Of a DNA stretch of 64,000 bases, positions 1 to 45,567 are shown piece by piece. The position numbers and the translations under genes are program-made. This stretch comes from Bilabrum cf. latius (taxonomy: Eukaryota), in assembly GCA_965178125.1 (NCBI GenBank), contig OZ237739.1:1178001-1242000 (forward strand), read 5' to 3'. Under the pieces are notes generated by a model. That model ran no database searches. It saw only the letters and a list, made by a program, of their open reading frames with translations, and had not been told where the DNA came from. The first letter of the stretch is position 1; each line of letters starts with the position of its first letter.

Positions 1-1282
1 AAATGAGGTGATTGACCTGGTGAGCAGTGATAGTGAAGGAGAATTTGAGGGAAACCCCGGCGGAAGCATGGGTGTAAGTGGTCGTGCAGAGGCATCATCT
101 GGAGTGCTGGGTGCCGTTGTATCACGGAGTGGGCGAGCTGGGCGAGGCAGCATGGCATTTGGTCCAGAGTTGTCGTCAGCATCAGGTTCAACAGCTGCAT
201 TGATGCCATTGGCTTCTGGGGTCTAGTCGACTGAAGGGGTGTCATCTAGTGCAACCAGTACAAGTGCCCGCTTGGGGCAGAAGAGAGTCCGTGAAGACTT
301 CCAGGCTGCTGCAGAAGGTGGCGATGCAGTGGATGAGCACGGTGCAAGCAACAAGAAGAAGAAGAGGAGGAGAAAGGAGCAGAGTACAGCGGCAGGGGAA
401 CTCACCGGCGATAGTAGCAAAGAATACGACTGCTCTGTGTGCGGCAAGCGCTTTGGGGAGGCAGACAATCTCACGACGCACATGAGGACTGTGCACCTTG
501 GGGAGCGCAATCACGAGTGCTCTGTGTGCAGCAAGCGCTTTGGGCAGGCAAGCAATCTCACGAAGCACATGAGGACTGTGCACTATGGGGAGCGCAATCA
601 CGAGTGCTCTGTGTGCGGCAAGCGCTTTGGATTGGCAAGCAATCTCACGAAGCACATGAGGACTGTGCACCTTGGGGAGCGCAATCACGAGTGCTCTGTG
701 TGCGGCAAGCGCTTTGGATTGGCAAGCAGTCTCACGACGCACATGAGGACTGTGCACCTTGGGGAGCGCAATCACGAGTGCTCTGTGTGCGGCAAGCGCT
801 TTGGGGAGGCAGGCCATCTCACGAAGCACATGAGGACTGTGCACCTTGGGGAGCGCAATCACGAGTGCTCTGTGTGCGGCAAGCGCTTTGGGCAGGCAAG
901 CCATCTCTCGACGCACATGAGGAGTGTGCACCTTGGGGAGCGCAATCACGAGTGCTCTGTGTGCGGCAAGCGCTTTGGGGAGGCAGGCCATCTCACGACG
1001 CACATGAGGACTGTGCACCTTGGGGAGCGCAATCACGAGTGCTCTGTGTGCGGCAAGCGCTTTGGGGAGGCAGGCCATCTCACGACGCACATGAGGACTG
1101 TGCACCTTGGGGAGCGCAATCACGAGTGCTCTGTGTGCGGCAAGCGCTTTGGATTGGCAAGCAGTCTCTCGACGCACATGAGGACTGTGCACCTCGGGGA
1201 GCGCAATCACGAGTGCTCTGTGTGTGGGAAGCGCTTTGGGGTGGCAGGCAATCTTAAGAAGCACATGAATGCGATGCACTGA
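1..1282 (+). CDS. SIM-NLS-C2H2 zinc-finger array protein, copy 1 (10 fingers, 5' end outside window; TAG=Gln)
   Basis: EVIDLVSSDSE, KKKKRRRK and 10 x 29-aa CSVCGKRFG..L..HMRTVH repeats. An in-frame TAG at 224-226 joins the two track ORFs. Stop is TGA. Confidence 0.9.
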
Positions 1283-1422
1283 TAGTCTTGGAAATGCACT
1301 GAGCATGACGTGTTCAGTAACCCATGCCTGCTGGCACCAGTGGGAAAGGCAATCCTGCCTTTCTGCTTCACTGCTGGTGCGGTCGTCTCTCTCGTGGGAA
1401 GGAAGAGCTGTGGTCAGTATCC

Positions 1423-1941
1423 TGTTATATGTACTCGGACATCAGGACTGAAGCAACGGGGAGCAGAGGCGAGACGGAAGAGGAGGTGGGCGCAGAAGGA
1501 CAGGAGGTGGAGAAGAATAGGGGGGCACCGGCACAGGCGGCGACAGTGCGGTGTCAACAGGGAGAACACAACGGGAGGAATGGGGGCTCCAGGTGCAAGG
1601 CACGAGGGAGACGCGAGTGGCAGCGGACTGCATGGCCAGCAGCACGCAGAGGGCCAACAGGTGGGTGGACAGATGGGGCGCACGGCAGGTCGGCCAGGAC
1701 CGGCGCGTGCAAGCTGAAAGGATAGGGCCAAGGTGGCAATGCAGGGAGCAAAGCACACGGTCCCTAGGGCGGGGAACAGGAACAGGAAGCCATGTGGCGA
1801 CGAGGCCAGTCGGGTGCATGGGGAAAGTGGTGTGTACATTCGTAGTGTCAGATGAATACCGCATTCAGGTGGACCGGTGAAGAACCAGTCGTTCGGGATG
1901 AAGCCCAGTGGGTCCGCGGGACCGGGGGCAGGAATTTTTCT
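1423..1941 (+). mobile_element. 519-bp non-coding mobile module (TGTTA...GGAATTTTTCT), copy in unit 1
   Basis: The same 519-bp block occurs at 6108-6626, 11039-37099 (split by the virophage), 41160-41678, 45710-46228 and inverted at 48359-48877, with differing flanks. Confidence 0.7.
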
Positions 1942-2194
1942 TTTTGGTAACTGCCAACCAGTGGGGATTGCAGCAGCCGTGAAGATGAGCCAATGGGTGT
2001 GGTTGAAGGAACAAATCTGATCTGTAGTCTAGGTTCAAGTTGCAAAGGCATTCCTGCATTTCTGCTGCATTGCTGGCGCGGTCTTCTCTCTCGTGGGAAG
2101 AAAGAGCTGCAGGCGAGGAATTCTGGGAGGTCACATCTGGACGTGAGCGGCAATCGAGTGGCGTGGACTCGAGCCACTGGAGTGGGCCCCCACT

Positions 2195-3541
2195 TTGGTG
2201 GGACTCGTGGGGCGGCACTGGCAGGCCGCGCTGGGTCGGTGGAGGAACGGGGCGAGCGGGAGGTACAGGCGGGCAGAGCTGCTGGCGCTGCGGGCGTGGG
2301 CCACGCTGGCGGAGGCAGTGGCGGGCGCAGGGACCGGGGCCCGCGGGTGGCTGCAGGCACCCATGGAGGCGGCAGCAGAGGTGGCGGCTGGATGCCGGTC
2401 AGCGCCCCAAGAGACAGGGGCGATCGGCTGGGGGGCAAGGCTCGACGGGGCTTCGGGTGCTGCAGATGCATCCGGGAGTAGCAGCAGCAGCAGCAGCAGC
2501 AACAGCAACAGCAGCGGTAGGCGAGCGGAGGCCATTCGCACTCGATTGGCAGCGAGAGCCGCTGCTGCCGGAGTGCTGGGCCCCGAGGACGCTGGCTTAG
2601 GCGGACTGGTGGCCGGACGTGCCGACCCGTGCGTGGTGTCCATCCGCTCGCACGCGCATGTTCCCTCGCGGCCCATCTCACGAGACCAGGAGGAGGGCGA
2701 TGAGGACGAGCGGTTGGAGCCACCGGCAGGGGCAGGGGCAGGGGCAGGGGCAGGGGCAGGGGCAGGGGCAGGGGCATCGGCAGGGCGAGGCGGTGAGCGC
2801 AGCAAGTAGGTTCCGGTCTTCGTGGCTTGGCCAGCCGCAAGTCCTGGTCCGTGCACGCACTTGGAATAGGAATGGGAGTCGGCCTCGCTCGGGGAACACG
2901 GCGGCGCCTCCGCCGCGCCCGCGCATCCGTCCGCTCGCGAGGTCAGCCAGGCCCTGGCGAGCTTCGAGAGCCACTGGACCCGGCCCCGCGGAGCCAACTG
3001 CGGGCCATGGGACGAGGCCGGCCTGGGGCTGGATGCGGGGCGGCTAGGCGCCCGGGGACTCGCGGCCGGGTCCGGGCATGGGGGGGACCCGACCCCCCTG
3101 TGCTGCCTTGTGCCCGCCGCCGGCTGGGTGAGACGGGCCGTAGTGCCTCAGCTGGTCTGGATGATGCAGGACGTGATGCATCGCATTGCGGCGTGGGCCA
3201 TGCCCCTGGTGCGGGGAGAGGCCGTCATGGGAGTGCCCCGGGGCGGCGAGGGAACAAGCGCGGAGACGAGCACGAAGCAGGTGCTCGAGCGCATGCTCGC
3301 TTTGGCTGGGGACCAGGGCTCCAGAGGGGCTGTCTCGGCGCTGCGCTGTGCCACTGGAGGTGCATGTGCATGTGCATGTGCATGTGCAGGTGGTGGCTCG
3401 TTGGGCTCGAGCTTGAATGCAGTGCACTGCAGCGACAGGGTGTGCGTCCTGCTGCGCCTCGCCATGCGGGTGGGATCGGCTGTGGCAGGCCCCCGACGGC
3501 ATCGGCACCGCAAGCGCTGCTTCCTCCTCCTCCTCGGGTAG
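2195..3541 (+). pseudogene. Degenerate Ala/Gly/Ser-rich host gene fragment carried in each array unit
   Basis: Track ORFs 2195-2809 and 3110-3541 share a frame and join through TAG. Other units show frameshifting indels and variable (AGC)n and (GGGGCA)n tracts. Confidence 0.35.
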
Positions 3542-4413
3542 CCCGAGTCCAGTGGCTGTGGGCTCCGTTGGAATCGGCTCAGGGGCCAGGAGGAGGAGGA
3601 ATAGGAAGAGGAATGGGAGGAGGAATAGGAGGAAGCAGGGGGTGTTGCGCCCGCCATCTGGGGGTGGGTCTGGCCTGGGCTCGGTGGACGAAGGGGCTGG
3701 GTCCGGGAGCGGGGAGGGGGCGGCGATGGTGTTCGGGGGCGGGGAGGGGGTAAGCGTGGGGGACCGTCAGGGCAAGGGGTGGGCGCTGGGTGTGCCGAGT
3801 GCGGGGGTACGGGAGTGCTTCACGTGGGAGTGTGGTCCCCGAGGGAAGGCGACGGAGAAGAGGGAGGTGAAGCGGCTGGCCACTGCCGTGGCCGAGTCGG
3901 CTCGTTTGCTTCTCGAGGTGCCGGGGCGGGGGGGGGTATCTGGAGGGGATGGTGTGATTGGAACTCGCCTTGGCATGGTCACAGGGCTTAGCCTGTGGGC
4001 GTCATGGGGATGCACATGCATGTGGGCTGGTCTATGCCAGCCTTGGTATCTGCGCAAACCCTGGATCGACTGCAGCAACAGACTGCGTGCTGGCAGCGCG
4101 CGGAGTCCACGTTCATTGCGGAACCTCGAGGCCAGGAAGGATTCACTCTTGGCTACTCATCGTGCCTATCGAATAGTACGAGAAGTGTCATCGTGCAAAT
4201 TCAATCTGTCTGTGTAGGCTTGTTCAAGTTGCCATCACTGTGGCGAGTTGGGTATCCAGACAAGGCCCCGATATCCCTGACGCAGTACTGGAGCAGACTC
4301 GAAGCCGTGGTGCAGCTCGACTAGTGTGAAATTCGTTTTGAGTCCGATCAACTTGAAGTGAAGACAAGCTTGTAAGACTGTTCAGGCTTTGCTTGCATCT
4401 TGGCGTGTTTTCC

Positions 4414-6051
4414 ATGGCAGGTCCAAATGAGGTGATTGACCTGGTGAGCAGTGATAGTGAAGAAGAGTTTGAGGGAAACCCCGGCGGAAGCATTGTTGTA
4501 AGTGGTCGTGCGGAGGCATCATCTGGAGTGCTGGGTGCCGTTGTATCACGGAGTGGGCGAGCTGGGCGAGGCAGCATGGCTGTTGGTCCAGAGTTGTCGT
4601 CAGCATCAGGTTCAACAGCTGCATTGCCATTGGCTTCTGGAGTCTAGTCGACTGAATCAGTGTCATCTAGTGCAACCAGCACAAGGGCCCGTTTGGGGCA
4701 GAAGAGAGTCCGTGAAGACTTCGAGGCTGCCGCAGAAGGTGGCGATGCAGTGGATGAGCACGGTGCAAGCAGCAAGAAGAAGAAGAGGAGGAGAAAGGAG
4801 CAGAGTCCAGCGGCAGGAGAACTCACCGGCGATAGTAGCAAGGGATACGATTGCTCTGTGTGCGGCAAGCGCTTTGGGCAGGCAGGCCATCTCACGACGC
4901 ACATGAGGACTGTGCACCTTGGGGAGCGCAATCACGAGTGCTCTGTGTGCGGCAAGCGCTTTGGGGAGGCAGGCAATCTCAAGACGCACATGAGGACTGT
5001 GCACCTCGGGGAGCGCAATCACGAGTGCTCTGTGTGCGGCAAGCGCTTTGGGGAGGCAGGCAGTCTCACGACGCACATGAGGACTGTGCACCTTGGGGAG
5101 CGCAATCACGAGTGCTCTGTGTGCGGCAAGCGCTTTGGGGTGGCAGGCAGTCTCAAGACGCACATGAGGACTGTGCACCTTGGGGAGCGCAATCACGAGT
5201 GCTCTGTGTGCGGCAAGCGCTTTGGGGTGGCAAGCAATCTCAAGACGCACATGAGGACTGTGCACCTTGGGGAGCGCAATCACGAGTGCTCTGTGTGCGG
5301 CAAGCGCTTTGGGGAGGCAGGCCATCTCACGACGCACATGAGGACTGTGCACCTTGGGGAGCGCAATCACGAGTGCTCTGTGTGCGGCAAGCGCTTTGGG
5401 CAGGCAAGCCATCTCACGAAGCACATGAGGACTGTGCACTATGGGGAGCGCAATCACGAGTGCTCTGTGTGCGGCAAGCGCTTTGGGGTGGCAAGCAGTC
5501 TCACAAAGCACATGAGCACTGTGCACCTTGGGGAGCGCAATCACGAGTGCTCTGTGTGCGGCAAGCGCTTTGGGCAGGCTGACAGTCTCAAGACGCACAT
5601 GAGGACTGTGCACCTTGGGGAGCGCAATCACGAGTGCTCTGTGTGCGGCAAGCGCTTTGGGCAGGCAAGCCATCTCACGAAGCACATGAGGACTGTGCAC
5701 TATGGGGAGCGCAATCACGAGTGCTCTGTGTGCGGCAAGCGCTTTGGGGTGGCAAGCAGTCTCAAGACGCACATGAGGACTGTGCACCATGGGGAGCGCA
5801 ATCACGAGTGCTCTGTGTGCGGCAAGCGCTTTGGGGAGGCAGGCAGTCTCACGAAGCACATGAGGACTGTGCACCTTGGGGAGCGCAATCACGAGTGCTC
5901 TGTGTGCGGCAAGCGCTTTGGGGTGGCAAGCAGTCTCACGAAGCACATGAGGACTGTGCACCTTGGGGAGCGCAATCACGAGTGCTCTGTGTGCGGCAAG
6001 CGCTTTGGGGTGGCAGGCAGTCTCACGAAGCACATTGTAGCAATGCACTGA
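4414..6051 (+). CDS. SIM-NLS-C2H2 zinc-finger array protein, copy 2 (14 fingers)
   Basis: ATG GCA GGT CCA at 4414, one internal TAG (4645-4647), 14 x 87-bp repeats, TGA stop. Confidence 0.92.
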
Positions 6052-6107
6052 TAGGCTTGGTAACGCACTGTGCATGACGTGTTGAGCAACCCATGCCTGC
6101 TGCCATC

Positions 6108-6626
6108 TGTTAAATATACTCGGACATCAGGATTGAAGCGACGGGGAGCAGAGGTGAGACGGAAGAGGAGGTGGGCGCAGAAGGACAGGAGGTGGAGAAG
6201 AATAGGGGGGCACCGGCACAGGCGACGACAGTGCGGTGTCAACAGGGAGAACACAACGGGAGGACTTGGGGCTCCAGGTGCAAGGCACGAGGGAGACGCG
6301 AGTGGCAGCGGACTGCATGGCCAGCAGCACGCAGAGGGCCAACAGGTGGGTGGACAGATGGGGCGCACGGCAGGTCGGCCAGGACCGGCGCGTGCAAGCT
6401 GAAAGGATAGGGCCAAGGTGGCAATGCAGGGAGCAAAGCACACGGTCCCTAGGGCGGGGAACAGGAACAGGAAGCCATGTGGCGACGAGGCCAGTCGGGT
6501 GCGTGGGGAAAGTGGCGTGTACATTCGTAGTGTCAGATGAATACCGCATTCAGGTGGACCGGTGAAGAACCAGTCGTTCGGGATGAAGCCCAGTGGGTCC
6601 GCGGGATCGGGGGCAGGAATTTTTCT
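6108..6626 (+). mobile_element. 519-bp module, unit 2
   Basis: Same ends and length as the other copies. Confidence 0.7.
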
Positions 6627-7163
6627 TTTTGGTAACTGCCAACCAGTGGGGATTGCAGCAGCCGTGAAGATGAGCCAATGGGTGTGGTTGAAGGAACAAA
6701 TCTGATCTGTAGTCTAGGTTCAAGTTGCAAAGGCATTCCTGCATTTCCGCTTCATTGCTGGCGCGGTCTTCTCTCTCGTGGGAAGAAAGAGCTGCAGGCG
6801 AGGAATTCTGGGAGGTCACATCTGGACGTGAGCGGCAATCGAGTGGCGTGGACTCGAGCCCCTGCAGAGGCCCCCACTTTGGTGGGACTCGCGGGGCGGC
6901 ACTGGCAGGCCGCGCTGGGTCGGTGGAGGGAGGGGGCGAGCGGGAGGTACAGGCGGGCAGAGCTGCTGGCGCTGCGGGCGTGGGCCACGCTGGCGGAGGC
7001 AGTGGCGGGCGCAGGGGCCGGGGCCCGCGGGTGGCTGCAGGCACCCATGGAGGCGGCAGCAGAGGTGGCGGCTGGATGCCGGTCAGCGCCCCAAGAGACA
7101 GGGGCGATCGGCTGGGGGGCAAGGCTCGACGGGGCTTTGGGTGCTGCAGATGCATCCGGGAGT

Positions 7164-7231
<68 letters not shown>

Positions 7232-9084
7232 CAACAGCAGCGGTAGGCGAGCGAAGGCCATTCGCACTCGATTGGCAGCGAGAGCCGCTGCTGCCGGAGT
7301 GCTGGGCCCCGAGGACGCTGGCTTAGGCGGACTGGTGGCCGGACGTGCCGACCCGTGCGTGGTGTCCATCCGCTCGCACGCGCATGTTCCCTCGCGGCCC
7401 ATCTCACGAGACCAGGGAGGGCGATGAGGACGAGCGGTTGGAGCCACCGGCAGGGGCAGGGGCAGGGGCAGGGGCAGGGGCAGGGGCAGGGGCATCGGCA
7501 GGGCGAGGCGGTGAGCGCAGCAAGTAGGTTCCGGTCTTCGTGGCTTGGCCAGCCGCAAGTCCTGGTCCGTGCACGCACTTGGAATAGGAATGGGAGTCAG
7601 CCTCGCTCGGGGAACACGGCGGCGCCTCCGCCGCGCCCGCGCATCCGTCCGCTCGCGAGGTCAGCCAGGCCCTGGCGAGCTTCGAGAGCCACTGGACCCG
7701 GCCCCGCGGAGCCAACTGCGGGCCATGGGACGAGGCCGGCCTGGGGCTGGATGCGGGGCGGCTAGGCGCCCGGGGACTCGCGCCCGGGTCCGGGCATGGG
7801 GGGGACCCGACCCCCCTGTGCTGCCTTGTGCCCGCCGCCGGCTGGGTGAGACGGGCCGTAGTGCCTCAGCTGGTGAGGTCTGGATGATGCAGGACGTGAT
7901 GCATCGCAGTGCGGCGTGGGCCATGCCCCTGGTGCGCGGAGAGGCCGTCATGGGAGTGCCCCGGGGCGGCGAGGGAACAAGCGCGGAGGCGAGCACGAAG
8001 CAGGTGCTCGAGCGCATGCTCGCTTTGGCTGGGGACCAGGGCTCCAGAGGGGCTGTCGCGGGGCTGCGCTGTGCCACTGGAGGTGCAGGTGCATGTGCAT
8101 GTGGTGGCTCGTTGGGCGCGAGCTTGAATGCAGTGCACTGCAGCGACAGGGTGTGCGTCCTGCTGCGCCTCGCCATGCGGGTGGGATGGGATGTGGCAGG
8201 CCCCGTCGGCATCGGCACCGCGAGCGCTGCTTCCTCCTCCTCCTCGGGTAGCCCGAGCCCAGTGGCTGTGGGCTCCGTTGGAATCGGCTCAGGGTCCAGG
8301 AAGAGGAGGAGGAATGGGAGGAGGAATGGGAGGAGGAGGCAGGGGGTGTTACGCCCGGTCTCTGGGGGTGGGTCTGGCCTGGGCTCGGTGGACAATGGGG
8401 CTGGGTCCGGGAACAGGGAGGGGGTAAGCGTGGGGGACCGTTAGGGCAAGGGGTGGGCGCTGGGTGTGCCGAGCGCGGGGGTGCGGGAGTGCTTCACGTG
8501 GGGGTGTGGTCCCCGAGGGAAGGCGACGGAGAAGAGGGAGGTGAAGCTGCCCACTGCCGTGGCCGAGTCGGCTCGTTTGCTTCTCGAGGTGCCGGGGCGG
8601 GGGGGGGTATCTGGAGGGGATGGTGTGATTGGAACTCGCCTTGGCGTGGTCACGGGGCTTAGCATGTGGGCGTCATGGGGATACACATCCATGTGGGCTG
8701 GTCTATGCCAGCCTTGGTATCTGTGCAAACCCTGGATCGACTGCAGCAACAGACTGCGTGCTGGCAGCGCGCGGAGTCCACGTTCATTGCGGAACCTCGA
8801 GGCCAGGAAGGGTTCACTCTTGACTACTCATCGTGCCTATCGAATAGTAGGAGAAGTGTCATCGTGCAACTTCAATCTGTCTGTGTAGGCTTCTTCGAGT
8901 TGCCATCACTGTGGCGAGTTGGGCTTCCAGACAAGGCCCCGATATCCCTGACCTAGCACTGGAGCAGACTCGAAGCCGTGGTGCAGCTCGACTAGTGTGA
9001 AATTCGTTTTGAGTCCGATCAACCTGAAGTGGAGACAAGCTTGTAAGACTGTCCAGGCTTTGCTTGCATCTTGGCGTGTTTTCC

Positions 9085-10896
9085 ATGGCAGGTCCAAATG
9101 AGGTGATTGACCTGGTGAGCAGTGATAGTGAAGGAGAGTTTGAGGGAAACCCCGGCGGAAGCATGGGTGTAAGTGGTCGTGCGGAGGCATCATCTGGAGT
9201 GCTAGGTGCCGTTGTATCACGGAGTGGGCGAGCTGGGCGAGGCAGCATGGCATTTGGTCCAGAGTTGTCGTCAGCATCAGGTTCAACAGCTGCATTGCCA
9301 TTGGCTTCTGGAGTCTAGTCAACTGAATCAGTGTCATCTAGTGCAACCAGCACAAGTGCCCGCTTGGGGCAGAAGAGAGTCCGTGAAGACTTCGAGGCTG
9401 CCGCAGAAGGTGGCGATGCAGTGGATGAGCACGGTGCAAGCAACAAGAAGAAGAAGAGGAGGAGAAAGGAGCAGAGTCCAGCGGCAGGAGAACTCACTGG
9501 CGATAGTAGCAAGGGATACGACTGCTCTGTGTGCGGCAAGCGCTTTGGGCAGAAAGGCAATCTCACGAAGCACATGAGGACTGTGCACCTTGGGGAGCGC
9601 AATCACGAGTGCTCTGTGTGCGGCAAGCGCTTTGGACGCCAAGACAGTCTCACAAAGCACATGAGGACTGTGCACCTTGGGGAGCGCAATCACGAGTGCT
9701 CTGTGTGCGGCAAGCGCTTTGGGGTGGCAGGCCATCTCACGAAGCACATGAGGACTGTGCACCTTGGGGAGCGCAATCACGAGTGCTCTGTGTGCGGCAA
9801 GCGCTTCGGGGAGGCAGGCAGTGTCACGAAGCACATGAGGACTGTGCACCTTGGGGAGCGCAATCACGAGTGCTCTGTGTGCGGCAAGCGCTTCGGGGAG
9901 GCAGGCAGTGTCACGACGCACATGAGGACTGTGCACCTTGGGGAGCGCAATCACGAGTGCTCTATGTGCGGCAAGCGCTTTGGACGCCAAGACACTTTCT
10001 CGACGCACATGAGGACTGTGCACCTTGGGGAGCGCAATCACGAGTGCTCTATGTGCGGCAAGCGCTTCGGGCAGGCAGGCCATCTCTCGACGCACATGAG
10101 GACTGTGCACCTTGGGGAGCGCAATCACGAGTGCTCTGTATGCGGCAAGCGCTTTGGATTGGCAGGCCATCTCACGACGCACATGAGGACTGTGCACCTT
10201 GGGGAGCGCAATCACGAGTGCTCTGTATGCGGCAAGCGCTTTGGGGACGCAGGCAGTCTTACTAAGCACATGAGGACTGTGCACCTTGGGGAGCGCAATC
10301 ACGAGTGCTCTGTGTGCGGCAAGCGCTTTGGGCAGGCAGGCAGTCTCACGACGCACATGAGGACTGTGCACCTTGGGGAGCGCAATCACGAGTGCTCTGT
10401 GTGCGGCAAGCGCTTCGGGGAGGCAAGCAGTCTCACAAAGCACATGAGGAGTGTGCACCTCGGGGAGCGCAATCACGAGTGCTCTGTGTGCGGCAATCGC
10501 TTTGGGCAGGCAAGCAATCTCACGACGCACATGAGGACTGTGCACTATGGGGAGCGCAATCACGAGTGCTCTGTGTGCGGCAAGCGCTTTGGGGTGGCAG
10601 GCCATCTCAAGACGCACATGAGGACTGTGCACCTTGGGGAGCGCAATCACGAGTGCTCTGTGTGCGGCAAGCGCTTCGGGGTGGCAAGCAGTCTCACGAA
10701 GCACATGAGGACTGTGCACTATGGGGAGCGCAATCACGAGTGCTCTGTGTGCGGCAAGCGCTTTGGGGTGGCAGGCCATCTCAAGACGCACATGAGGACT
10801 GTGCACCTTGGGGAGCGCAATCACGAGTGCTCTGTGTGCGGCAAGCGCTTTGGGGTGGCAGGCCATCTTAAGAAGCATTTGAAAGCGATGCACTGA
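9085..10896 (+). CDS. SIM-NLS-C2H2 zinc-finger array protein, copy 3 (16 fingers)
   Basis: Same architecture, internal TAG at 9316-9318, 16 fingers. Confidence 0.92.
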
Positions 10897-22136: not shown

Positions 22137-22290
22137 TCTCTATATAATATCTATATAATATAATCTTTAAGTCATTTTAAACGCGTTATATTATAAAAAA
22201 GGGGCTTAAAAAATAGACACTATTGATATAGATGATTATATTAATTAATATTATTAAAATATTAATTAATTAGACCGGTTAAATAGTTCT

Positions 22291-35531: not shown

Positions 35532-35572
35532 ATCTATAATAATTAAAAGTAAAATAATTATTATAATAAAAC

Positions 35573-36220: not shown

Positions 36221-37012
36221 AGCGCGTTTGTTCCATTTGTGAAGGTATAAGCGAGGATAAGGGGGTATAATGAAGGTAGTTTAGAAGGTTGAATAATGGA
36301 GTCCCATAAAGTGATGGAACTTTTGGCTAGAAAATGGCTAGAGTCCCATAACACCTTCACAAACTTGAGTAATCCACGTAATGAGAATTAATACTGAACT
36401 TGAATATTCACATTCATTTTTATTTATACATATACTTTTAAAGACCAACATTTCCTAAGATATACTGAACTTCAACTTCAATATTCATTTTCATTTTTTT
36501 TAATATTTATACATTCATATCATATATTTATTATTTATCAATATATTCTTTTAAATTAAATACTATTATGACCCATTATTATCATATTTAATATTCTATT
36601 TAGCCCTAAATTACCATTTCAAGGGGTACCCCTTAGATAATCATTCTAAATATATAATTTTATTGCTTTACCTTCATTAATGATTGAACTTGAATTAATT
36701 TTATAAATTTACATTGAACTTTAGAAGGTCAAATAATCACCCTTCTAAAATGAAGGGACTATTTTATACTAAAACACCAAAAGTCCCATTTGACCTTCTA
36801 ACAAAAGCCCCGGTACAAGAAATGTTATAATATACTATATAAATAGCATTTTTTGTACTATATCTTTTATAGAGGTTTCCTTGACTTTTGGAGCGACTAG
36901 CGACAAAAGGAGTGGAATGGACTGAAGAGCTTTAGCTCTGATGGACTGGAACTATTGAAACTTGTTTCCTTAACCGAAGGGAATAAATTTATTTATTACC
37001 GTAGCGGGGGGG
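36221..37012 (-). repeat. Right terminal inverted repeat (792 bp)
   Basis: Reverse complement of 11476-12267. Confidence 0.97.
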
Positions 37013-39552
37013 AATACCGCATTCAAGTGGACCGGTGAAGAACCAGTCGTTCGGGATGAAGCCCAGTGGGTCCGCGGGACCGGGGGCAGGAATTTTTCTT
37101 TTTGGTAACTGCCAACCAGTGGGGATTGCAGCAGCCGTGAAGATGAGCCAATGGGTGTGGTTGAAGGAACAAATCTGATCTGTAGTCTAGGTTCAAGTTG
37201 CAAAGGCATTCCTGCATTTCTGCTGCATTGCTGGCGCGGTCTTCTCTCTCGTGGGAAGAAAGAGCTGCAGACGAGGAATTCTGGGAAGTCACGCCTGGAC
37301 TTGAGCGGCAATCGAGTGGCGTGGACTCGAGCCACTGGAGTGGGCCCCCACTTTGGTGGGACTCGTGGGGCGGCACTGGCAGGCCGCGCTGGGTCGGTGG
37401 AGGGAGGGGGCGAGCGGGAGGTACAGGCGGGCAGAGCTGCTGGCGCTGCGGGCGTGTGGCATGCTGGCGGAGGCAGTGGCGGGCGCAGGGACCGGGGCCC
37501 GCGGGTGGCTGCAGACACCCATGGAGGCGGCAGCAGAGGTGGCGGCTGGATGCCGGTCGGCGCCCCAAGAGACAGGGGCGATCGGCTGGGGGGCAAGGCT
37601 CGGCGGGGCTTCGGGTGCTGCAGATACATCCGGGACCAGCAACAGCAGCAACAGCAACAGCAGCAGCGGTAGGCGAGCGAAGGCCATTCGCACTCGATTG
37701 GCAGCGAGAGCCGCTGCTGCCGGAGTGCTGGGCCCCGAGGACGCTGGCTTGGGAGGACTGGAGCCGGGACGCGCCGACCTGTGCGTGCCGTCCATCCGTT
37801 CGCACGCGCATGTTCCCTCGCGGCCCATCTCACGAGACCAGGAGGAGGGCGATGAGGACGAGCGGTTGGAGGCATCGGCAGGGGCAGGGGCATCGGCAGG
37901 GGCAGGGGCAGGGGCAGGGGCAGGGGCAGGGGCAGGGGCATCGGCAGGGCGAGGCGGTGAGCGCAGCAAGGTGGCTCCGGTCTTCGTGGCTTGGCCAGCC
38001 GCAAGTCCTGGTCCGTGCTCGCACTCGGAAAAGGACTAGGAGTCGGCCTCGCTCGGGGAACACGGTGGCGCCTCCGCCGCGCCCGCGCATCCGTCCGCTC
38101 GCGAGGTCAGCCAGGCCCTGTCGAGCCTCGAGAGCGACTGGACCCGGCCCCGCGGAGCCAACTGCGGGCCATGGGACGAGGCCGGCCTGGGGCTGGATGC
38201 GGGGCCACTCGGCGCCCGGGGACTCGCGCCCGGGTCCGGGCATGGGGGGGACCCGACCCCCCTGTGCTGCCTTGTGCCCGCCGCCGGCTGGGTGAGACGG
38301 GCCGTGGTGCCTCAGTTGGTCTGGATGATGCAGGACGTGATGCATCGCAGTGCGGCGTGGGCCATGCCCCTGGTGCGGGGAGAGGCCGTCATGGGAGTGC
38401 CCCGGGGCGGCGAGGGAACAAGCGCGGAGGCGAGCACGAAGCAGGTGCTCGAGCGCATGCTCGCTTTGGCTGGGGACCAGGGCTCCAGAGGGGCTGTCTC
38501 GGCGCTGCGCTGTGCCACTGGAGGTGCAGGTGCAGGTGCAGGTGCAGGTGGTGGCTCGTTGGGCGCGAGCTTGAATGCAGTGCACTGCAGCGACAGGGTG
38601 TGCGTCCTGCTGCGCCTCGCCATGCGGGTGGGATCGGCTGTGGCAGGCCCCCGACGGCATCGGCACCGCGAGCGCTGCTTCCTCCTCCTCCTCGGGTAGC
38701 CCGAGCCCAGTGGCTGTGGGCTCCGTTTGAATCGGCTCAGGGGCCAGGAGGAGGAATAGGAGGAGGAATAGGAGGAGGAAGCAGGGGGTGTTGAGCCCGG
38801 TCTCTGAGGGTGGGTCTGGCATGGGCTCGGTGGACAATGGGGCTGGGTCCGGGAGCGGGGAGGGGGCGGCGATGATTTTCGGGGGCGGGGAGGGGGTAAG
38901 CGTGGGGGACCGTCAGGGCAAGGGGTGGGCGCTGGGTGTGCCGAGCGCGGGGGTGCGGGAGTACTTCACGTGGGAGTATGGTCCCCGAGGGAAGGCGACG
39001 GAGAAGAGAGAGGTGAAGCGACTGGCCACTGCCGTGGCCGAGTCGGCTCATTTGCTTCTCGACGTGCCGGGGGGGGGGAGGGTCTGGAGGGGATGGCGTG
39101 ATTGGAACTCGCCTTGGCATGGTCACGGGGCTTAGCATGTGGGCGTCATGGGGAAACAAATCCATGTGGTCTGTGCCAGCCTTGGTATCTGCGCAAGCCC
39201 TGGATCGACTGCAGCAACAGACTGCGTGCTGGCAGCGCGCGGAGTCCATGTTCATTGCGGAACCTCGAGGCCAGGAAGGGTTCACTCTTGGCTACTCATC
39301 GTGCCTATCGAATAGTACGAGAAGCGTCATCGTGGAAATTCAATCTGTCTGTCTAGGCTTCTTCAAGTTGCCATCACTGTGGCGAGTTGGGTATCCAGAC
39401 AAGGCCCCGATATCCCTGACCTAGTACTGGAGCAGACTCGAAGCCGTGGTGCAGCTCGACTAGTCTGAAATTCGTTTTGAGTCCGATCAACTTGAAGTGG
39501 AGACAAGCTTGTAAGACTGTCCAGGCTTTGCTTGCATCTTGGCGTGTTTTCC

Positions 39553-41103
39553 ATGGCAGGTCCAGATGAGGTGATTGACCTGGTGAGCAGTGATAGTGAA
39601 GAAGAGTTCGAGGGAAACCCCGGCGGAAGCATGGGTGTTAGTGTTCGTGCGGAGGCATCATCTGGACTGCTGGGAGCCGTTGTATCACGGAGTGGGCGAG
39701 CTGGGCGAGGCAGCATGGCTGTTGGTCCAGAGTTGTCGTCAGCACCAGGTTCAACAGCTGCATTGCCATTGGCTTCTGGAGTCGAGTCGACTGAATCAGT
39801 GTCATCTAGTGCAACCAGCACAAGGGCCCGTTTGGGGCAGAAGAGAGTCCGTGAAGACTTCGAGGCTGCCGTAGAAGGTGGCGATGCAGTGGATGAGCAC
39901 GGTGCAAGCAACAAGAAGAAGAAGAGGAGGAGAAAGGAGCAGAGTCCAGCGACAGGAGAACTCACCGGCGATAGGAGCAGGGGATACTATTGCTCTGTGT
40001 GCGGCAAGCGCTTTGGGCAGGCAGGCCATCTCACGAAGCACATGAGGACTGTGCACCTTGGGGAGCGCAATCACGAGTGCTCTGTGTGCGGCAAGCGCTT
40101 TGGGGAGGCAGGCCATCTCACGACGCACATGAGGACTGTGCACCATGGGGAGCGCAATCACGAGTGCTCTGTGTGCGGCAAGCGCTTTGGGGTGGCAGGC
40201 ACTCTCACAACGCACATGAGGACTGTGCACCTTGGGGAGCGCAATCACGAGTGCTCTGTGTGCGGCAAGCGCTTTGGGCAGGCAAGCAGTCTCACGAAGC
40301 ACATGAGGACTGTGCACCTTGGGAAGCGCAATCACGAGTGCTCTGTGTGCGGCAAGCGCTTCGGGGAGGCAGGCCATCTCACGAAGCACATGAGGACTGT
40401 GCACCTTGGGGAGCGCAATCACGAGTGCTCTGTGTGCGGCAAGCGCTTTGGGCAGGCAGACAGTCTCACGACGCACATGAGGACTGTGCACCTTGGGGAG
40501 CGCAATCACGAGTGCTCTGTGTGCGGGAAGCGCTTTGGGCAGGCAAGCCATCTCACAAAGCACATGAGGACTGTGCACCTTGGGGAGCGCAATCACGAGT
40601 GCTCTGTGTGCGGCAAGCGCTTCGGGGTGTCAGGCACTCTCACAACGCACATGAGGACTGTGCACCTCGGGGAGCGCAATCACGAGTGCTCTGTGTGCGG
40701 CAAGCGCTTTGGGCAGGCAGGCAGTCTCACGAAGCACATGAGGACTGTGCACCTCGGGGAGCGCAATCACGAGTGCTCTGTGTGCGGCAAGCGCTTTGGG
40801 TTGGCAAGCAGTCTCACGAAGCACATGAGGACTGTGCACCTTGGGGAGCGCAATCACGAGTGCTCTGTGTGCGGCAAGCGCTTTGGGGAGGCAGGCAGTC
40901 TCACGACGCACATGAGGACTGTGCACCTTGGGGAGCGCAATCACGAGTGCTCTGTGTGCGGGAAGCGCTTTGGGCTGGCAGGCACTCTCACGACGCACAT
41001 GAGGACTGTGCACCTTGGGGAGCGCAATCACGAGTGCTCTGTGTGCGGCAAGCGCTTTGGGGTGGCAGGCAGTCTCACGAAGCACATTGTAGCAATGCAC
41101 TGA
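39553..41103 (+). CDS. SIM-NLS-C2H2 zinc-finger array protein, copy 4 (13 fingers)
   Basis: Open even in the standard code: GAG stands where the other four copies have TAG, showing that the N-terminus and fingers are one ORF. Confidence 0.95.
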   Translation: MAGPDEVIDLVSSDSEEEFEGNPGGSMGVSVRAEASSGLLGAVVSRSGRAGRGSMAVGPELSSAPGSTAALPLASGVESTESVSSSATSTRARLGQKRVREDFEAAVEGGDAVDEHGASNKKKKRRRKEQSPATGELTGDRSRGYYCSVCGKRFGQAGHLTKHMRTVHLGERNHECSVCGKRFGEAGHLTTHMRTVHHGERNHECSVCGKRFGVAGTLTTHMRTVHLGERNHECSVCGKRFGQASSLTKHMRTVHLGKRNHECSVCGKRFGEAGHLTKHMRTVHLGERNHECSVCGKRFGQADSLTTHMRTVHLGERNHECSVCGKRFGQASHLTKHMRTVHLGERNHECSVCGKRFGVSGTLTTHMRTVHLGERNHECSVCGKRFGQAGSLTKHMRTVHLGERNHECSVCGKRFGLASSLTKHMRTVHLGERNHECSVCGKRFGEAGSLTTHMRTVHLGERNHECSVCGKRFGLAGTLTTHMRTVHLGERNHECSVCGKRFGVAGSLTKHIVAMH

Positions 41104-41159
41104 TAGGCTTGGTAACGCACTGTGCATGACGTGTTGAGCAACCCATGCCTGCTGCCATC

Positions 41160-41678
41160 TGTTAAATATACTCGGACATCAGGATTGAAGCAACGGAGAG
41201 CAGAGGTGAGACGGAAGACGAGGTGGGCGCAGGAGGACAGGAGGTGGAGAAGAAGAGGGGGGCACCGGCACAGGCGACGACAGTGCGGTGTCAACAGGGA
41301 GAACACAACGGGAGGAAGGGTGGCTCCAGGTGCAAGGCACGAGGGAGACGCGGGTGGCAGCGGACTGCATGGCCAGCAGCACGCAGAAGGCCAACAGGTG
41401 GGTGGACAGATGGGGCGCACGGCAGGTCGGCCAGGACCGGCGCGTGCAAGCTGAAAGGATAGGGCCAAGGTGGCAATGCAGGGAGCAAAGCACACGGTCC
41501 CTAGGGCGGGGAACAGGAACAGGAAGCCATGTGGCGACGAGGCCAGTCGGGTGCATGGGGAAAGTGGCGTGTACATTCGTAGTGTCAGATGAATACCGCA
41601 TTCAAGTGGACCGGTGAAGAACCAGTCGTTCGGGATGAAGCCCAGTGGGTCCGCGGGACCGGGGGCAGGAATTTTTCT
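41160..41678 (+). mobile_element. 519-bp module, unit 4
   Basis: Same ends and length as the other copies. Confidence 0.7.
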
Positions 41679-44103
41679 TTTTGGTAACTGCCAACCAGTG
41701 GGGATTGCAGCAGCCGTGAAGATGAGCCAATGGGTGTGGTTGAAGGAACAAATCTGATCTGTAGTCTAGGTTCAAGTTGCAAAGGCATTCCTGCATTTCT
41801 GCTTCATTGCTGGCGCGGTCTTCTCTCTCGTGGGAAGAAAGAGCTGCAGAGGAGGAATTCTGGGAAGTCACGTCTGGACTTGAGCGGCAATCGAGTGGCG
41901 TGGACTCGAGCCCCTGGAGAGGGCCCCCACTTTGGTGGGACTCGCGGGGCGGCACTGGCAGGCCGCGCTGGGTCGGTGGAGGGAGGGGGCGAGCGGGAGG
42001 TACAGGCGGGCAGAGCTGCTGGTGCTGCGGGCGTGGGTCACGCTGGCAGAGGCAGTGGCGGGCGCAGGGGCCGGGGCCCGCGGGTGGCTGCAGGCACCCA
42101 TGGAGGCGGCAGCATAGGTGGCGGCTGGATGCCGGTCGGCGCCCCAAGAGACAGGGGCGATCGGCTGGGGGGCAAGGCTCGACGGGGCTTCGGGTGCTGT
42201 GGATGCATCCGGGAGCAGTAGCAGCAGCAGCAGCAGCAGCAGCAACAGCAACAGCAGCGGTAGGCGAGCGAAGGCCATTCGCACTCAATTGGCAGCGAGA
42301 GCCGCTGCTGCCGGAGTGCTGGGCCCCGAGGACGCTGGGTTGGGAGGACTGGTGCTCGGACGTGCCGACCTGTGCGTGCCGTCCATCCGCTCGCACGCGC
42401 AGGTTCCCTCGCGGTCCATCTCACGAGACCAGGAGGAGGGCGATGAGGACGAGCGGATAGAAGCATCGGCAGGGGCAGGGGCAGGGGCAGGGGCATCGGC
42501 AGGGCGAGGCGGTGAGCGCAGCAAGTAGGTTCCGGTCTTCGTGTCTTGTCCAGCCGCAAGTCCTGGTCCGTGCACGCACTCGGAATAGGAATGGGAGTCG
42601 GACTCGCTCGGGGAACACGGCGGCGCCTCCGCCGCGCCCGCGCATCCGTCCGCTCGCGAGGTCAGCCAGGCCCTGGCGAGCCTCGAGAACGACTGGACCC
42701 GGCCCCGCGGAGCCAACTGCGGGCCATGGGACGAGGCCGGCCTGGGGCTGGATGCGGGGCGACTGGGCGCCCGGGGACTTGCGCCCGGGTCCGGGCATGG
42801 GGGGGACCCGACCCCCCTGTGCTGCCTTGTGCCCGCCGCCGGCTGGGTGAGACGGGCCGTAGTGCCTCAGCTGGTGAGGTCTGGATGATGCAGGACGTGA
42901 TGCATCGCAGTGCGGCGTGGGCCATGCCCCTGGTGCGCGGAGAGGCCGTCATGGGAGTGCCCCGGGGCGGCGAGGGAACAAGCGCGGAGGCGAGCACGAA
43001 GCAGGTGCTCGAGCGCATGCTCGCTTTGGCTGGGGACCAGGGCTCCAGAGGGGCTGTCTCGGCGCTGCGCTGTGCCACTGGAGGTGCAGGTGCATGTGCA
43101 GGTGGTGGCTCGTTGGGCGCGAGCTTGAATGCAGTGCACTGCAGCGACAGGGTATGCGTCCTGCTGCGCCTCGCCATGCGGGTGGGATGGGCTGTGGCAG
43201 GCCCCGACGGCATCGGCACCGCGAGCGCTGCTTCCTCCTCCTCGGGTAGCCCAAGCCCAGTGGCTGTGGGCTCCGTTTGAATCGGCTCAGGGTCCACGAA
43301 GAGGAGGAGAAGGAAGAGGAGGAGGAAGCAGGGGGTGTTGAGCCCGGTCTCTGAGGGTGGGTCTGGCATGGGCTCGGTGGACAAAGGGGCTGGGTCCGGG
43401 AGCGGGGAGGGGGCGGCGATGGTGTTCGGGGGCGGGGAGGGGGTAAGCGTGGGGGACCGTCAGGGCAAGGGGTGGGCGCTGGGTGTGCCGAGCGCGGGGG
43501 TGCGGGAGTGCTTCACGTGGAGGTGTGGTCCCCGAGGGAAGGCGACGGAGAAGAGGGAGGTGAAGCTGCCCACTGCCGTGGCCGAGTCGGCTCGTTTGCT
43601 TCTCGAGGTGCCGGGGCGGGGGGGGGTATCTGGAGGGGATGGTGTGATTGGAACTCGCCTTGGCGTGGTCACGGGGCTTAGCATGTGGGCGTCATGGGGA
43701 TGCACATGCATGTGGGCTGGTCTATGCCAGCCTTGGTATCTGTGCAAACCCTGGATCGACTGCAGCAACAGACTGCGTGCTGGCAGCGCGCGGAGTCCAC
43801 GTTCATTGCGGAACCTCGAGGCCAGGAAGGGTTCACTCTTGACTACTCATCGTGCCTATCGAATAGTACGAGAAGCGTCATCGTGCAAATTCAATCTGTC
43901 TGTCTAGGCTTCTTCAAGTTGCCATCACTGTGGCGAGTTGGGTATCCAGACAAGGCCCCGATATCCCTGACCTAGCACTGGAGCAGACTCGAAGCCGTGG
44001 TGCAGCTCGACTAGTGTGAAATTCGTTTTGAGTCCGATCAACCTGAAGTGGAGACAAGCTTGTAAGACAGTCCAGGCTTTGCTTGCATCTTGGCGTGTTT
44101 TCC

Positions 44104-45567
44104 ATGGCAGGTCCAAATGAGGTGATTGACCTGGTGAGCAGTGATAGTGAAGAAGAGTTTGAGGGAAATCCCGGCGGAAGCATGGGTGTAAGTGGTCGTG
44201 CGGAGGCATCATCTGGAGTGCTGGGTGCCGTTGTATCACGGAGTGGGCGAGCTGGGCGAGGCAGCATGGCTGTTGATCCAGAGTTGTCGTCAGCATCAGG
44301 TTCAACAGCTGCATTACCATTGGCTTCTGGAGTCTAGTCGACTGAAGGGGTGTCATCTAGTGCAACCAGTACAAGTGCCCGCTTGGGGCAGAAGAGAGTC
44401 CGTGAAGACTTCGAGGCTGCCGCAGAAGGTGGCGATGCAGTGGATGAGCACGGTGCAAGCAGCAAGAAGAAGAAGAGGAGGAGAAAGGAGCAGAGTACAG
44501 CAGCAGGAGAACTCACCGGCGATAGTAGCAAGGGATACGACTGCTCTGTGTGCGGCAAGCGCTTTGGGGTGGCTGACAATCTCACGAAGCACATGAGGAC
44601 TGTGCACCTTGGGGAGCGCAATCACGAGTGCTCTGTGTGCGGCAAGCGCTTTGGACGCCAAGACAGTCTCACAAAGCACATGAGGACTGTGCACCTTGGG
44701 GAGCGCAATCACGAGTGCTCTGTGTGCGGCAAGCGCTTTGGGGAGGCAGGCCATCTCACGAAGCACATGAGGACTGTGCACCTTGGGGAGCGCAATCACG
44801 AGTGCTCTGTGTGCGGCAAGCGCTTCGGGGAGGCAGGCAGTGTCACGAAGCACATGAGGACTGTGCACCTTGGGGAGCGCAATCACGAGTGCTCTGTGTG
44901 CGGCAAGCGCTTCGGGGAGGCAGGCAGTCTCACGACGCACATGAGGACTGTGCACCTTGGGGAGCGCAATCACGAGTGCTCTGTGTGCGGCAAGCGCTTT
45001 GGACGCCAAGACACTTTCTCGACGCACATGAGGACTGTGCACCTTGGGGAGCGCAATCACGAGTGCTCTGTGTGCGGCAAGCGCTTCGGGGTGGCAAGCA
45101 GTCTCACGACGCACATGAGGACTGTGCACCTTGGGGAGCGCAATCACGAGTGCTCTGTGTGCGGCAAGCGCTTCGGGGAGGCAAGCAGTCTCACGAAGCA
45201 CATGAGGACTGTGCACCTCGGGGAGCGCAATCACGAGTGCTCTGTGTGCGGCAAGCGCTTTGGGGAGCCAAGCAATCTCACGACGCACATGAGGACTGTG
45301 CACCTTGGGGAGCGCAATCACGAGTGCTCTGTGTGTGGGAAGCGCTTTGGGGTGGCAGGCCATCTCAAGACGCACATGAGGACTGTGCACCTTGGGGAGC
45401 GCAATCACGAGTGCTCTGTGTGCGGCAAGCGCTTCGGGGTGGCAAGCAGTCTCACGAAGCACATGAGGACTGTGCACCTTGGGGAGCGCAATCACGAGTG
45501 CTCTGTGTGCGGCAAGCGCTTTGGGGTGGCAGGCCATCTTAAGAAGCATTTGAAAGCGATGCACTGA
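44104..45567 (+). CDS. SIM-NLS-C2H2 zinc-finger array protein, copy 5 (12 fingers)
   Basis: Same architecture, internal TAG at 44335-44337. Confidence 0.92.

Follow-up and report, generated by a model that had tools for sequence, protein, structure and literature searches.

The window that we analyzed, a 64,000-nucleotide stretch of DNA from the GC-rich eukaryote Bilabrum cf. latius, carries five paralogous zinc finger (ZNF) genes, here called Z1 to Z5, in tandem on the plus strand (Table 1). Each gene and its spacer form a tandem unit of ~4.4 to 4.7 kb, and the spacers carry the microsatellites (GGCAGG)n and (AGC)26. A preliminary description of the locus had reported paralogs with 10, 14, 16, 13, and 12 fingers, built from 87-bp units. 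A six-frame scan of the window for C-x2-C-x12-H-x3-5-H reproduced each of these counts (65 matches, all on the plus strand and all within five arrays), and TRF found a period of 87 bp in all five arrays. Five is the count within the window but only a lower bound for the family, because the window start cuts Z1; likewise, the span of 1 to 45567 given for the family covers the five genes but also takes in an inserted element, virophage-like and 25.5 kb long, that does not belong to the family. A second gene in the spacer was rejected, as the variable sites of the four aligned spacers lack three-base periodicity in any 300-column bin, and no Rfam family or tRNA was found in the window.

Table 1. 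Positions of the ZNF genes, their parts, the spacers, and the inserted element within the window (SIM, SUMO-interacting motif)
Feature	Positions	Strand	SIM-like motif	TAG codon	Basic cluster	Fingers	TRF array	Remarks
Z1	1-1282	+	8-49	224-226	353-376	10 (431-1279)	426-1268	5' end cut by window start; TGA stop
Z2	4414-6051	+	4432-4473	4645-4647	4774-4797	14 (4852-6048)	4847-6035	545 aa; TGA stop
Z3	9085-10896	+		9316-9318		16 (9523-10893)	9518-10877	603 aa; TGA stop
Z4	39553-41103	+	39571-39612		39913-39936	13 (39991-41100)	39991-41087	516 aa
Z5	44104-45567	+		44335-44337		12 (44542-45564)	44537-45531	487 aa
Spacer 1 of tandem unit	1283-4413							GC-rich, microsatellites, without coding periodicity
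Equivalent spacers	6052-9084; 10897-11475 plus 37013-39552; 41104-44103							Equivalent to spacer 1
Virophage-like element	11476-37012							25,537 bp, low GC; inserted in a ZNF spacer, outside the ZNF family
TIRs of the element	11476-12267; 36221-37012							792 nt, 100 % identical
Target duplication	11471-11475; 37013-37017							AATAC, 5 bp

In finger pattern and Pfam score, these are classical (Krueppel-type) C2H2 poly-zinc-finger genes. All 65 units fit C-x2-C-x12-H-x4-H, and codon 8 encodes F in 65/65 and codon 14 L in 60/65; a seven-residue linker brings the unit to 29 aa. Against Z4, the Pfam zf-C2H2 model (PF00096) scores 255.9 bits over 13 stretches (E = 9.5e-79; cut-off, 25.2 bits). 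In 53 of 60 units, the linker reads LGERNHE. Compared with the seven-residue TGEKP-type consensus linker between C2H2 fingers, it has kept the length and G-E-(K/R), with substitutions for Thr, Pro, and the aromatic residue. The zinc ligands and linker codons 24 and 26 to 29 are invariant across units. None of the five arrays is disrupted in frame, all five genes stop at TGA, and the last finger directly adjoins the stop codon, with zero residues between.

The genetic code and the inserted element

Under the standard code, only Z4 is an uninterrupted open reading frame (ORF); codon 78, which is GAG in Z4 alone, is an in-frame TAG in Z1, Z2, Z3, and Z5. Several observations argue that this TAG is read through. 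In-frame TAGs number 7, 5, and 10, about the off-frame rate, in three neighboring host ORFs (1246, 1490, and 1036 aa, respectively), and ORFs of the virophage-like element contain 0 to 26 each and end in TAA or TGA. Of the homologs aligned at three conserved columns, 36/40, 28/40, and 40/40 have Gln opposite TAG (7.4-fold enrichment). In the helicase alignment, Q is the commonest residue at six TAG columns, and three further TAG columns show a conserved Y, D, or R. By these comparisons, TAG reads as a sense codon while TAA and TGA remain stops, a rare code that host and element have in common. The assignment of TAG to Gln in both is only probable because of the three columns conserved for other residues. 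Since TAG is read as sense, the four genes with TAG at codon 78 are not truncated there, and all five ZNF genes are probably intact.

An intron offers a second way around the TAG. A GTAAGT...CTAG stretch of 150/153 nt in phase 0 is present in Z1, Z2, Z3, and Z5, and Z4, with GTTAGT and GAG, is the only copy to have lost both the TAG and the GTAAGT 150 nt upstream, a pattern that fits an intron in the other four. We consider this less likely than read-through: the stretch has a coding-like pN/pS of 0.47, and TAG is sense in the neighboring ORFs. In the contigs of four sequencing runs compared over 36500 to 40100, all probably DNA, no joint skips the candidate intron. These same contigs break within arrays, and the differences listed for them mostly mirror paralogs.

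The inserted element is bounded by perfect TIRs and a target duplication, and four paralogous spacers retain empty sites. In-frame TAG codons are frequent in it, and it codes for a PrimPol-helicase, a major capsid protein (MCP), a penton, and an rve integrase. The MCP matches that of mavirus (6g45; E = 5.6e-8), as does the penton (6g41; E = 2.4e-24), and the integrase matches PF00665 above cut-off (4.5e-11, 43.3 bits). Neither packaging ATPase nor protease gave a Pfam match, the protease candidate gave no PDB match, the MCP had no homologs at E <= 1e-10, and a pattern search of viral contigs returned no relatives of the PrimPol-helicase. Judged by its capsid, penton, integrase, TIRs, and target-site duplication, the element appears to be a virophage or Maverick-Polinton-like integrating element. 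Its integration is very recent, and its position within the ZNF cluster may be coincidence.

Variation and turnover of the fingers

The preliminary description had placed the variation at helix positions -1, 2, 3, 5, and 6, and its residue lists agree exactly with our per-codon counts over the 65 fingers: V20/E19/Q15/L6/R4/D1 at -1, G36/S21/D8 at 2, S29/H21/N10/T5 at 3, T49/K11/S5 at 5, and T33/K32 at 6. Among the 60 non-terminal fingers, on which the variation statistics were computed, 16/21 nucleotide columns vary in the helix versus 14/66 elsewhere (Fisher p = 8.7e-6), the opposite of variation spread evenly over the repeat. The excess is nonsynonymous. We obtained a pN/pS of 2.99 over helix -1 to 6 and 2.80 at the five variable positions versus 0.18 in the other 22 codons, values to be read with the qualification that the helix pS comes from few synonymous sites (seven codons) and that gene conversion and recurrent mutation violate the assumptions of the measure. 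Variant-codon occurrences, which are not independent events, divide N:S as 173:11 in the helix and 15:32 elsewhere. Outside the helix, pS is 0.068, and it is on this value that the claim of units nearly identical at silent sites holds. Selection is read here only from the repeats and recent paralogs of one genome. R at -1 is paired with D at 2 in 4/4 cases, from two independent finger types (D at 2 occurs in 8/65 fingers). An Arg(-1)/Asp(2) buttress is typical of Zif268-type fingers, and the pairing, which by sequence corresponds to it, would favor DNA-recognition geometry.

Fingers are also gained and lost between paralogs and shuffled, the last as the preliminary description had proposed. 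There are 45 distinct helices among the 65 fingers, and all four gametes occur in 97/153 pairs of common variable sites, even those a few nucleotides apart. Z3 and Z5 are collinear save for four fingers. Between Z2 and Z4, the array ends correspond, and near-identical fingers occupy differing inner positions. Fingers differ as much within arrays (mean, 6.35) as between them (6.29). In total, these observations support the view that the arrays behave as coding minisatellites that vary mainly in the base-contacting helix, the evolutionary signature of PRDM9 and the KZFPs.

How far does the likeness go? Coding-minisatellite zinc finger arrays under diversifying selection are textbook knowledge for animal PRDM9 and KZFP genes. 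The proposed PRDM9/KRAB-ZNF-like logic stands with respect to the minisatellite array, the nonsynonymous excess in the helix, and the shuffling but finds no support with respect to membership, as no Pfam domain lies in the N terminus. The PRDM9 array of vertebrates and other animals is likewise built of near-identical C2H2 units as a coding minisatellite, with a nonsynonymous excess at -1, 3, and 6 and with unequal exchange that alters the number and order of fingers. In contrast, its unit has 28 aa rather than 29 aa with H-x4-H, and it is a single gene, whereas the Z family comprises at least five tandem, non-animal genes with TAG as sense and without PR/SET, KRAB, or SSXRD (Pfam, E <= 1, on the Z4 and Z2 N termini). 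KZFPs of tetrapods form tandem clusters and combine a short N-terminal effector with a long C-terminal array of fast-changing contact residues. The Z family shares the tandem clusters of recent duplicates and the short N-terminal part followed by the array but lacks the KRAB domain (PF01352), its fingers are far more alike within and between genes than those of typical KZFPs, and its link to mobile elements is putative. The ZAD zinc finger proteins of insects, in the excerpted accounts, are similarly lineage specific, rapidly evolving, and clustered, with an N-terminal module that does not bind DNA; the Z family has no ZAD domain, and its arrays are longer and more repetitive.

Relatives outside the locus were sought at several levels, and these searches turned up neither an ortholog nor a paralog beyond the window. 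The 41-nt core of the finger unit had no exact match in metagenome contigs, and a protein-pattern scan of those contigs found no relative, only three irrelevant loci with weak generic matches (23-27 % identity); scans of viral contigs and prokaryote genome contigs found none either. Among 8000 candidates scored in the array search, the best matches were generic animal ZNFs (31-55 % identity), and a search of the ESM Atlas gave generic C2H2 clusters. Our literature search found no description of a coding-minisatellite ZNF array under diversifying selection in a protist.

Possible roles of the family

We posit, as a reading that is probable if far from secure, that the genes form a tandem family of at least five members, specific to the lineage, and encode nuclear poly-zinc-finger proteins that bind DNA in a sequence-specific manner and whose arrays evolve as coding minisatellites. 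In this model, unequal exchange and gene conversion would keep the 87-bp units alike while altering the number and order of fingers, and diversifying selection would renew the base-reading residues at helix -1, 2, 3, 5, and 6. Each protein would consist of a short, domain-free, and probably disordered N terminus with a PIAS-like motif, a basic cluster resembling a nuclear localization signal, and 10 to 16 fingers. The most likely job of such proteins would be to recognize fast-changing genomic DNA, be it mobile elements, integrated viruses, or satellites, which would then be the selective agent, and the N terminus would bring a chromatin or transcription effector to the bound DNA.

The preliminary description went further and proposed KRAB-ZNF-like defense, in which the arrays recognize a transposon or integrated virophage and a SIM recruits SUMOylated silencing machinery, leading to heterochromatin. 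This full model is a special case of the explanation that we favor, and we think it unlikely as a whole. The clustering of fast-evolving poly-ZNF genes does parallel KZFP clusters, and a freshly integrated element lies inside the cluster, its integrase having a chromodomain match (Chromo, 23.0 bits, below the 25.1-bit cut-off). The N-terminal features also proved to be in place: VIDL and VSSDSE(E/G)EFE at residues 7 to 20 and KKKKRRRK at residues 121 to 128 are present in 5/5 copies. The N-terminal region has a pN/pS of 0.37 (variable sites, 10/9/23 by codon position), and codons 5 to 26, which span the SIM-like motif, have 0.20, a figure to which the recency of the paralogs lends little meaning.

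ZNF451 has a multi-finger architecture. A hydrophobic V/I/L core and then an acidic or Ser stretch, N-terminal of C2H2 fingers, is the arrangement that the Z family shares with the ZNF451/PIAS proteins (PMC12751080, PMC4907222). As defined in one of these, a SIM is a four-residue V/I/L core with an acidic or phosphorylatable Ser stretch, a favored CK2 target (PMC12751080); in the other, the PIAS1 SIM core is VIDLT, equal to VIDL of the Z family save for the last residue (PMC4907222). The N-terminal motif corresponds to this definition and is PIAS-like, as a sequence-level match to what the field calls a "loose" motif (PMC12751080, excerpt), so that the match alone weighs little. ZNF451 has SIMs in tandem, the Z family a single motif; the Z family also lacks an SP-RING, and its SUMO binding is putative. 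No Pfam family was matched at E <= 1 by the 146-aa N terminus of either Z4 or Z2 (no PR/SET, KRAB, SCAN, or BTB and no other repressor domain), and none of 2844 candidates of 283 to 903 aa scored as a homolog. The defense model gained no support from a scan of both strands of the window with position weight matrices built from a crude recognition code, a weak method that says little: neither the virophage nor the microsatellites nor any other part of the window held predicted targets above control, with 16, 17, 69, 86, and 41 of 100 finger-order shuffles scoring at least as high as Z1 to Z5, respectively.

A stronger statement, that a unicellular eukaryote independently evolved an adaptive KZFP/PRDM9-style repertoire against new virophages and retrotransposons, its minisatellite arrays under constant reshuffling and selected at their contact residues, with a phospho-regulated SIM as the link to SUMO-dependent heterochromatin, is in our estimate quite improbable. 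Were it true, the host could control when provirophages, its protection from giant viruses, stay latent and when they reactivate. To much the same low degree we credit the idea that the targets of the arrays are fast-evolving repeats (satellite, centromeric, or telomeric) or that the arrays have an architectural chromatin role, with repeat coevolution, and not mobile-element defense, driving helix turnover. Long arrays of very similar fingers would suit periodic targets, such as the spacer microsatellites, and some of the rapidly evolving insect ZAD-ZNFs bind heterochromatin according to the excerpted accounts; the target scan, microsatellites included, argues against it.

Could the family instead lack a function, its members being young duplicates or pseudogenes in decay that are cut short at TAG, with the helix variation arising from biased mutation or conversion and from relaxed constraint? 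The in-frame TAG in 4/5 copies under the standard code and the reliance of all inference on a single genome speak for this, but decay predicts frame disruptions and a pN/pS of ~1 everywhere, and what we see is 0.18 versus 2.99 and 0/65 fingers broken. Host ORFs nearby and the inserted element, moreover, use TAG as a sense codon, and N-terminal variation is biased to third codon positions, which makes decay very improbable. Least credible, and close to negligible, is a PRDM9-like specifier of meiotic recombination sites without its own methyltransferase domain, since a minisatellite array varying at contact positions is a PRDM9 hallmark (in the excerpted literature) but PR/SET, KRAB, and SSXRD are missing and there are at least five paralogs rather than one gene.

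If the family that we favor as DNA binding is expressed and does bind DNA, the evolutionary logic of minisatellite ZNFs would have a convergent origin beyond animals, coupled to another effector module, and a simple unicellular system, of which about five genes are in view, would be at hand for studying what drives such arms races. The code also matters for genome annotation, as standard-code gene calling would truncate 4/5 ZNF genes and shatter the genes of the virophage.

Finger arrays and the recognition helix

The five tandem paralogs Z1 to Z5 encode C2H2 zinc fingers in arrays of an 87-bp unit, and a six-frame scan for C-x2-C-x12-H-x3-5-H placed 65 of 65 fingers on the plus strand within these arrays; the minus strand also carries long open frames, but the fingers are encoded by the plus strand only. 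The repeat and six-frame scans returned the same unit and finger counts as a preliminary description of the sequence. The unit encodes 29 residues, C-S-V-C-G-K-R-F-G-[-1]-A-[2]-[3]-L-[5]-[6]-H-M-R-T-V-H-L-G-E-R-N-H-E, a finger of the H-x4-H type with a seven-residue linker, and Z4 matches Pfam zf-C2H2 with 255.9 bits (E = 9.5e-79).

Coordinates of the zinc-finger genes, their arrays (Tandem Repeats Finder, 87-bp unit), N-terminal features and the inserted element
Feature	Position	Strand	Details
Z1	5' end cut by window start	+	TAG codon 78 at 224-226
Z1 array	426-1268	+	10 fingers
Z2	4414-6051	+	545 aa with TAG=Gln; TAG codon 78 at 4645-4647
Z2 array	4847-6035	+	14 fingers
Z3	9085-10896	+	603 aa with TAG=Gln; TAG codon 78 at 9316-9318
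Z3 array	9518-10877	+	16 fingers
Inserted element	11476-37012		25,537 bp, ~30 % GC; between Z3 and Z4, starting 580 bp past Z3 stop
Z4	39553-41103	+	516 aa; GAG at codon 78, 39784-39786; GTTAGT 39631-39636
Z4 array	39991-41087	+	13 fingers
Z5	44104-45567	+	487 aa with TAG=Gln; TAG codon 78 at 44335-44337
Z5 array	44537-45531	+	12 fingers
SIM-like feature	residues 7-20		VIDL then VSSDSE(E/G)EFE; N-terminus
Basic feature	residues 97-101		KRVRE; N-terminus
Basic feature	residues 121-128		KKKKRRRK; N-terminus

Counted per codon over the 65 fingers, the DNA-reading helix positions hold V20, E19, Q15, L6, R4 and D1 at -1; G36, S21 and D8 at 2; S29, H21, N10 and T5 at 3; T49, K11 and S5 at 5; and T33 and K32 at 6, which reproduces the residue lists of the preliminary description. 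None of the four zinc ligands varies, nor do linker codons 24 and 26-29. Variation statistics were computed on 60 fingers, leaving out the five terminal ones, in which the linker is missing and the second half diverges. Variation is not spread evenly over the repeat: 16 of 21 nucleotide columns are variable in the helix versus 14 of 66 in the remainder (Fisher p = 8.7e-6). By the Nei-Gojobori method, pN/pS is 2.80 at positions -1, 2, 3, 5 and 6, and 2.99 over the whole helix from -1 to 6 (a range fixed in advance, from structure) versus 0.18 in the other 22 codons, ratios that describe repeats and recent paralogs of one genome, with few synonymous sites in the helix and a model that gene conversion breaks. 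Since pS is alike in both codon classes (0.090 in the helix, 0.068 elsewhere), the contrast is due to the nonsynonymous rate. The units are indeed near-identical even at silent sites outside the recognition helix, as had been claimed.

The 65 fingers carry 45 distinct seven-residue helices. All four allele combinations occur in 97 of 153 pairs of common variable sites, even a few nucleotides apart, and thus helix residues are combined almost freely. Arg at -1 is paired with Asp at 2 in four of four fingers (Asp at 2 being present in 8 of 65 overall), although these represent two independent finger types only; such pairing is familiar from Zif268-type DNA recognition.

The arrays also turn over. 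Z3 and Z5 are collinear, in that fingers 2-6 pair with fingers 2-6 at 0-1 differences and Z3 fingers 11, 13, 14 and 16 are the counterparts of Z5 fingers 8, 10, 11 and 12, with four fingers gained or lost. Z2 and Z4 agree at their ends (one difference in the first finger, none in the last), and near-identical fingers are displaced in the interior: Z2 finger 3 equals Z4 finger 11, finger 13 resembles finger 10, and finger 6 resembles finger 2. Mean finger-finger differences are 6.35 within arrays and 6.29 between them, an equality expected if both units and paralogs undergo unequal exchange and conversion.

The N-terminal region and a reading of function

When aligned, the five upstream regions share their start codon context, and the N-terminal region, 146 residues long, evolves as coding sequence (pN/pS 0.37; 10, 9 and 23 variable sites at codon positions 1, 2 and 3). 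Residues 1-146 of Z4 and Z2 match no Pfam family at E <= 1, and hence lack a KRAB, PR/SET, SCAN, BTB or ZAD domain; no homolog of the N-terminus was found among the 283-903-aa proteins of a 5.8-billion-cluster collection. The region is of low complexity with three short features (see table), among them the VIDL, acidic Ser tract and KKKKRRRK already pointed out in the preliminary description. A SUMO-interacting motif (SIM) is currently defined as a core of four V/I/L residues next to a run of acidic or phospho-Ser residues prone to CK2 phosphorylation, and is explicitly described as "loose" (PMC12751080). VIDL with its acidic tract fits that definition and, as a lead, may be considered a candidate SIM; it also matches the PIAS1 SIM core, VIDLT (PMC4907222).

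Do these genes follow the PRDM9/KRAB-ZNF-like logic proposed for them? The evolutionary signature, focused variation with array turnover, is real and strong, and the mode of evolution is that of PRDM9 and KRAB zinc-finger protein (KZFP) arrays. Family membership did not hold: the N-terminal domains that define PRDM9 and KZFPs were tested and are absent, so the Z genes lie outside both families. An array search (8000 candidates scored) returned generic animal poly-zinc-finger proteins at 31-55 % identity, and ESM Atlas matches were generic C2H2 clusters. Metagenome contigs contained no exact match to the 41-nt unit core, and scanning contigs from metagenomes, viruses and prokaryote genomes by protein pattern turned up no relative, only three irrelevant matches (23-27 %). 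A non-exhaustive keyword search of the literature yielded animal PRDM9, KZFP and ZAD cases and none from protists.

The likeliest role of these proteins is to bind fast-changing genomic DNA in a sequence-specific way and to recruit an effector there by means of the probably disordered N-terminus. SUMO-dependent silencing of mobile elements would be an attractive version of this reading, and we consider it improbable. A crude recognition-code scan found no target in the window that beat shuffled arrays, a weak method whose outcome is neutral for targeting.

TAG as a sense codon

Under the standard code Z4 alone is open throughout; codon 78 is TAG in Z1, Z2, Z3 and Z5. In the virophage-like element between Z3 and Z4, the standard code allows frames of up to 253 aa, and reading through TAG opens others of 919, 689, 629, 499, 385, 366 and 317 aa, containing 3-26 in-frame TAGs (0-26 per ORF across the element). 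GC-rich host frames at 51576-63674 run to 1246, 1490 and 1036 aa; they include 7, 5 and 10 in-frame TAGs, respectively, a density close to that seen off-frame. TAA or TGA terminates all these frames and all five zinc-finger genes. Element and host DNA alike use TAG as sense, a finding that stands apart from the zinc-finger family. UAG-only reassignment is rare among nuclear codes (PMC5304391).

What does TAG encode? The element's PrimPol-helicase (26 TAGs) was searched against 1.84 billion representatives, giving 1168 matches at E <= 1e-3 (top identity 47 %), and the best 40 of 150 listed matches were aligned. At the three best conserved TAG columns Gln is found in 36/40, 28/40 and 40/40 homologs; across TAG columns Gln is enriched 7.4-fold, followed by Arg at 2.6-fold. 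The protein has only 12 other Gln in 919 residues, and CAG is almost absent from element genes (0-6 per gene). Because three further TAG columns are conserved as Tyr (29/39), Asp (28/35) or Arg (35/40), we regard Gln as the probable, not certain, reading. In the element, CAG is almost replaced by TAG.

At codon 78, GTAAGT...CTAG (150/153 nt, phase 0) could instead delimit an intron in the four copies that carry TAG, exonised in Z4, which alone is changed at both signals, 150 nt apart (GTTAGT for GTAAGT, GAG for TAG). However, pN/pS is 0.47 in this stretch, and the length of the uninterrupted host frames points to a genome with few introns; we therefore favor TAG read-through, and the two changes in Z4 could be unrelated substitutions. 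Ten public sequencing runs contain all or part of a 2.5-kb query around Z4, one almost identical and the rest with many differences; 0/10 are recorded as RNA, and the arrays are beyond the resolution of short-read contigs.

The inserted element and the tandem unit

The virophage/Maverick-like element ends in 792-nt terminal inverted repeats that are 100 % identical and is flanked by a 5-bp target duplication, AATAC. Four paralogous spacers retain the uninterrupted, empty target; the insertion is thus recent, and it is clean; its place among the zinc-finger genes may be coincidental. Products of the element include a PrimPol-helicase, a major capsid protein like that of mavirus (PDB 6g45, E = 5.6e-8), a penton (PDB 6g41, E = 2.4e-24) and an rve integrase, whose chromodomain match is weak, under Pfam's own cut-off; a protein-primed polymerase is not recognisable. 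The element is similar to endogenous mavirus-like elements described in Cafeteria; by term search of a paper on these, "genetic code" and "TAG" are absent and "stop codon" occurs once, concerning assembly artefacts (PMC8547959). An intergenic 20-nt tandem repeat at 22289-22401 (5.7 copies, CTTTGGAAAGTATGAACCTA-like) may serve in regulation or as an origin.

By self-comparison, the tandem unit of ~4.4-4.7 kb comprises one gene and a ~3.0-3.1 kb GC-rich, microsatellite-bearing spacer, present five times at ~94-96 % identity. Variable sites across four spacers show no codon periodicity, and so no second gene is seen in the unit. Microsatellites (GGCAGG)10-12 and (AGC)26 at 2725-2785, 7164-7241 and 37877-37949 occupy homologous spacer sites and differ in length between units. 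An inverted copy (48358-48877, minus strand) of the 520-bp segment that trails each zinc-finger gene (e.g., 1423-1942) is 96.5-97.7 % identical, with no adjoining zinc-finger gene. Beside the insertion site, ~200 bp of spacer (36984-37225) has summed contig depth far above the remaining spacer in four of four runs (in run X2, ~38,000-50,000 in the first two bins versus ~50-2,200 in other spacer parts), which hints at many further copies of this segment elsewhere in the genome, depth not being equal to copy number.
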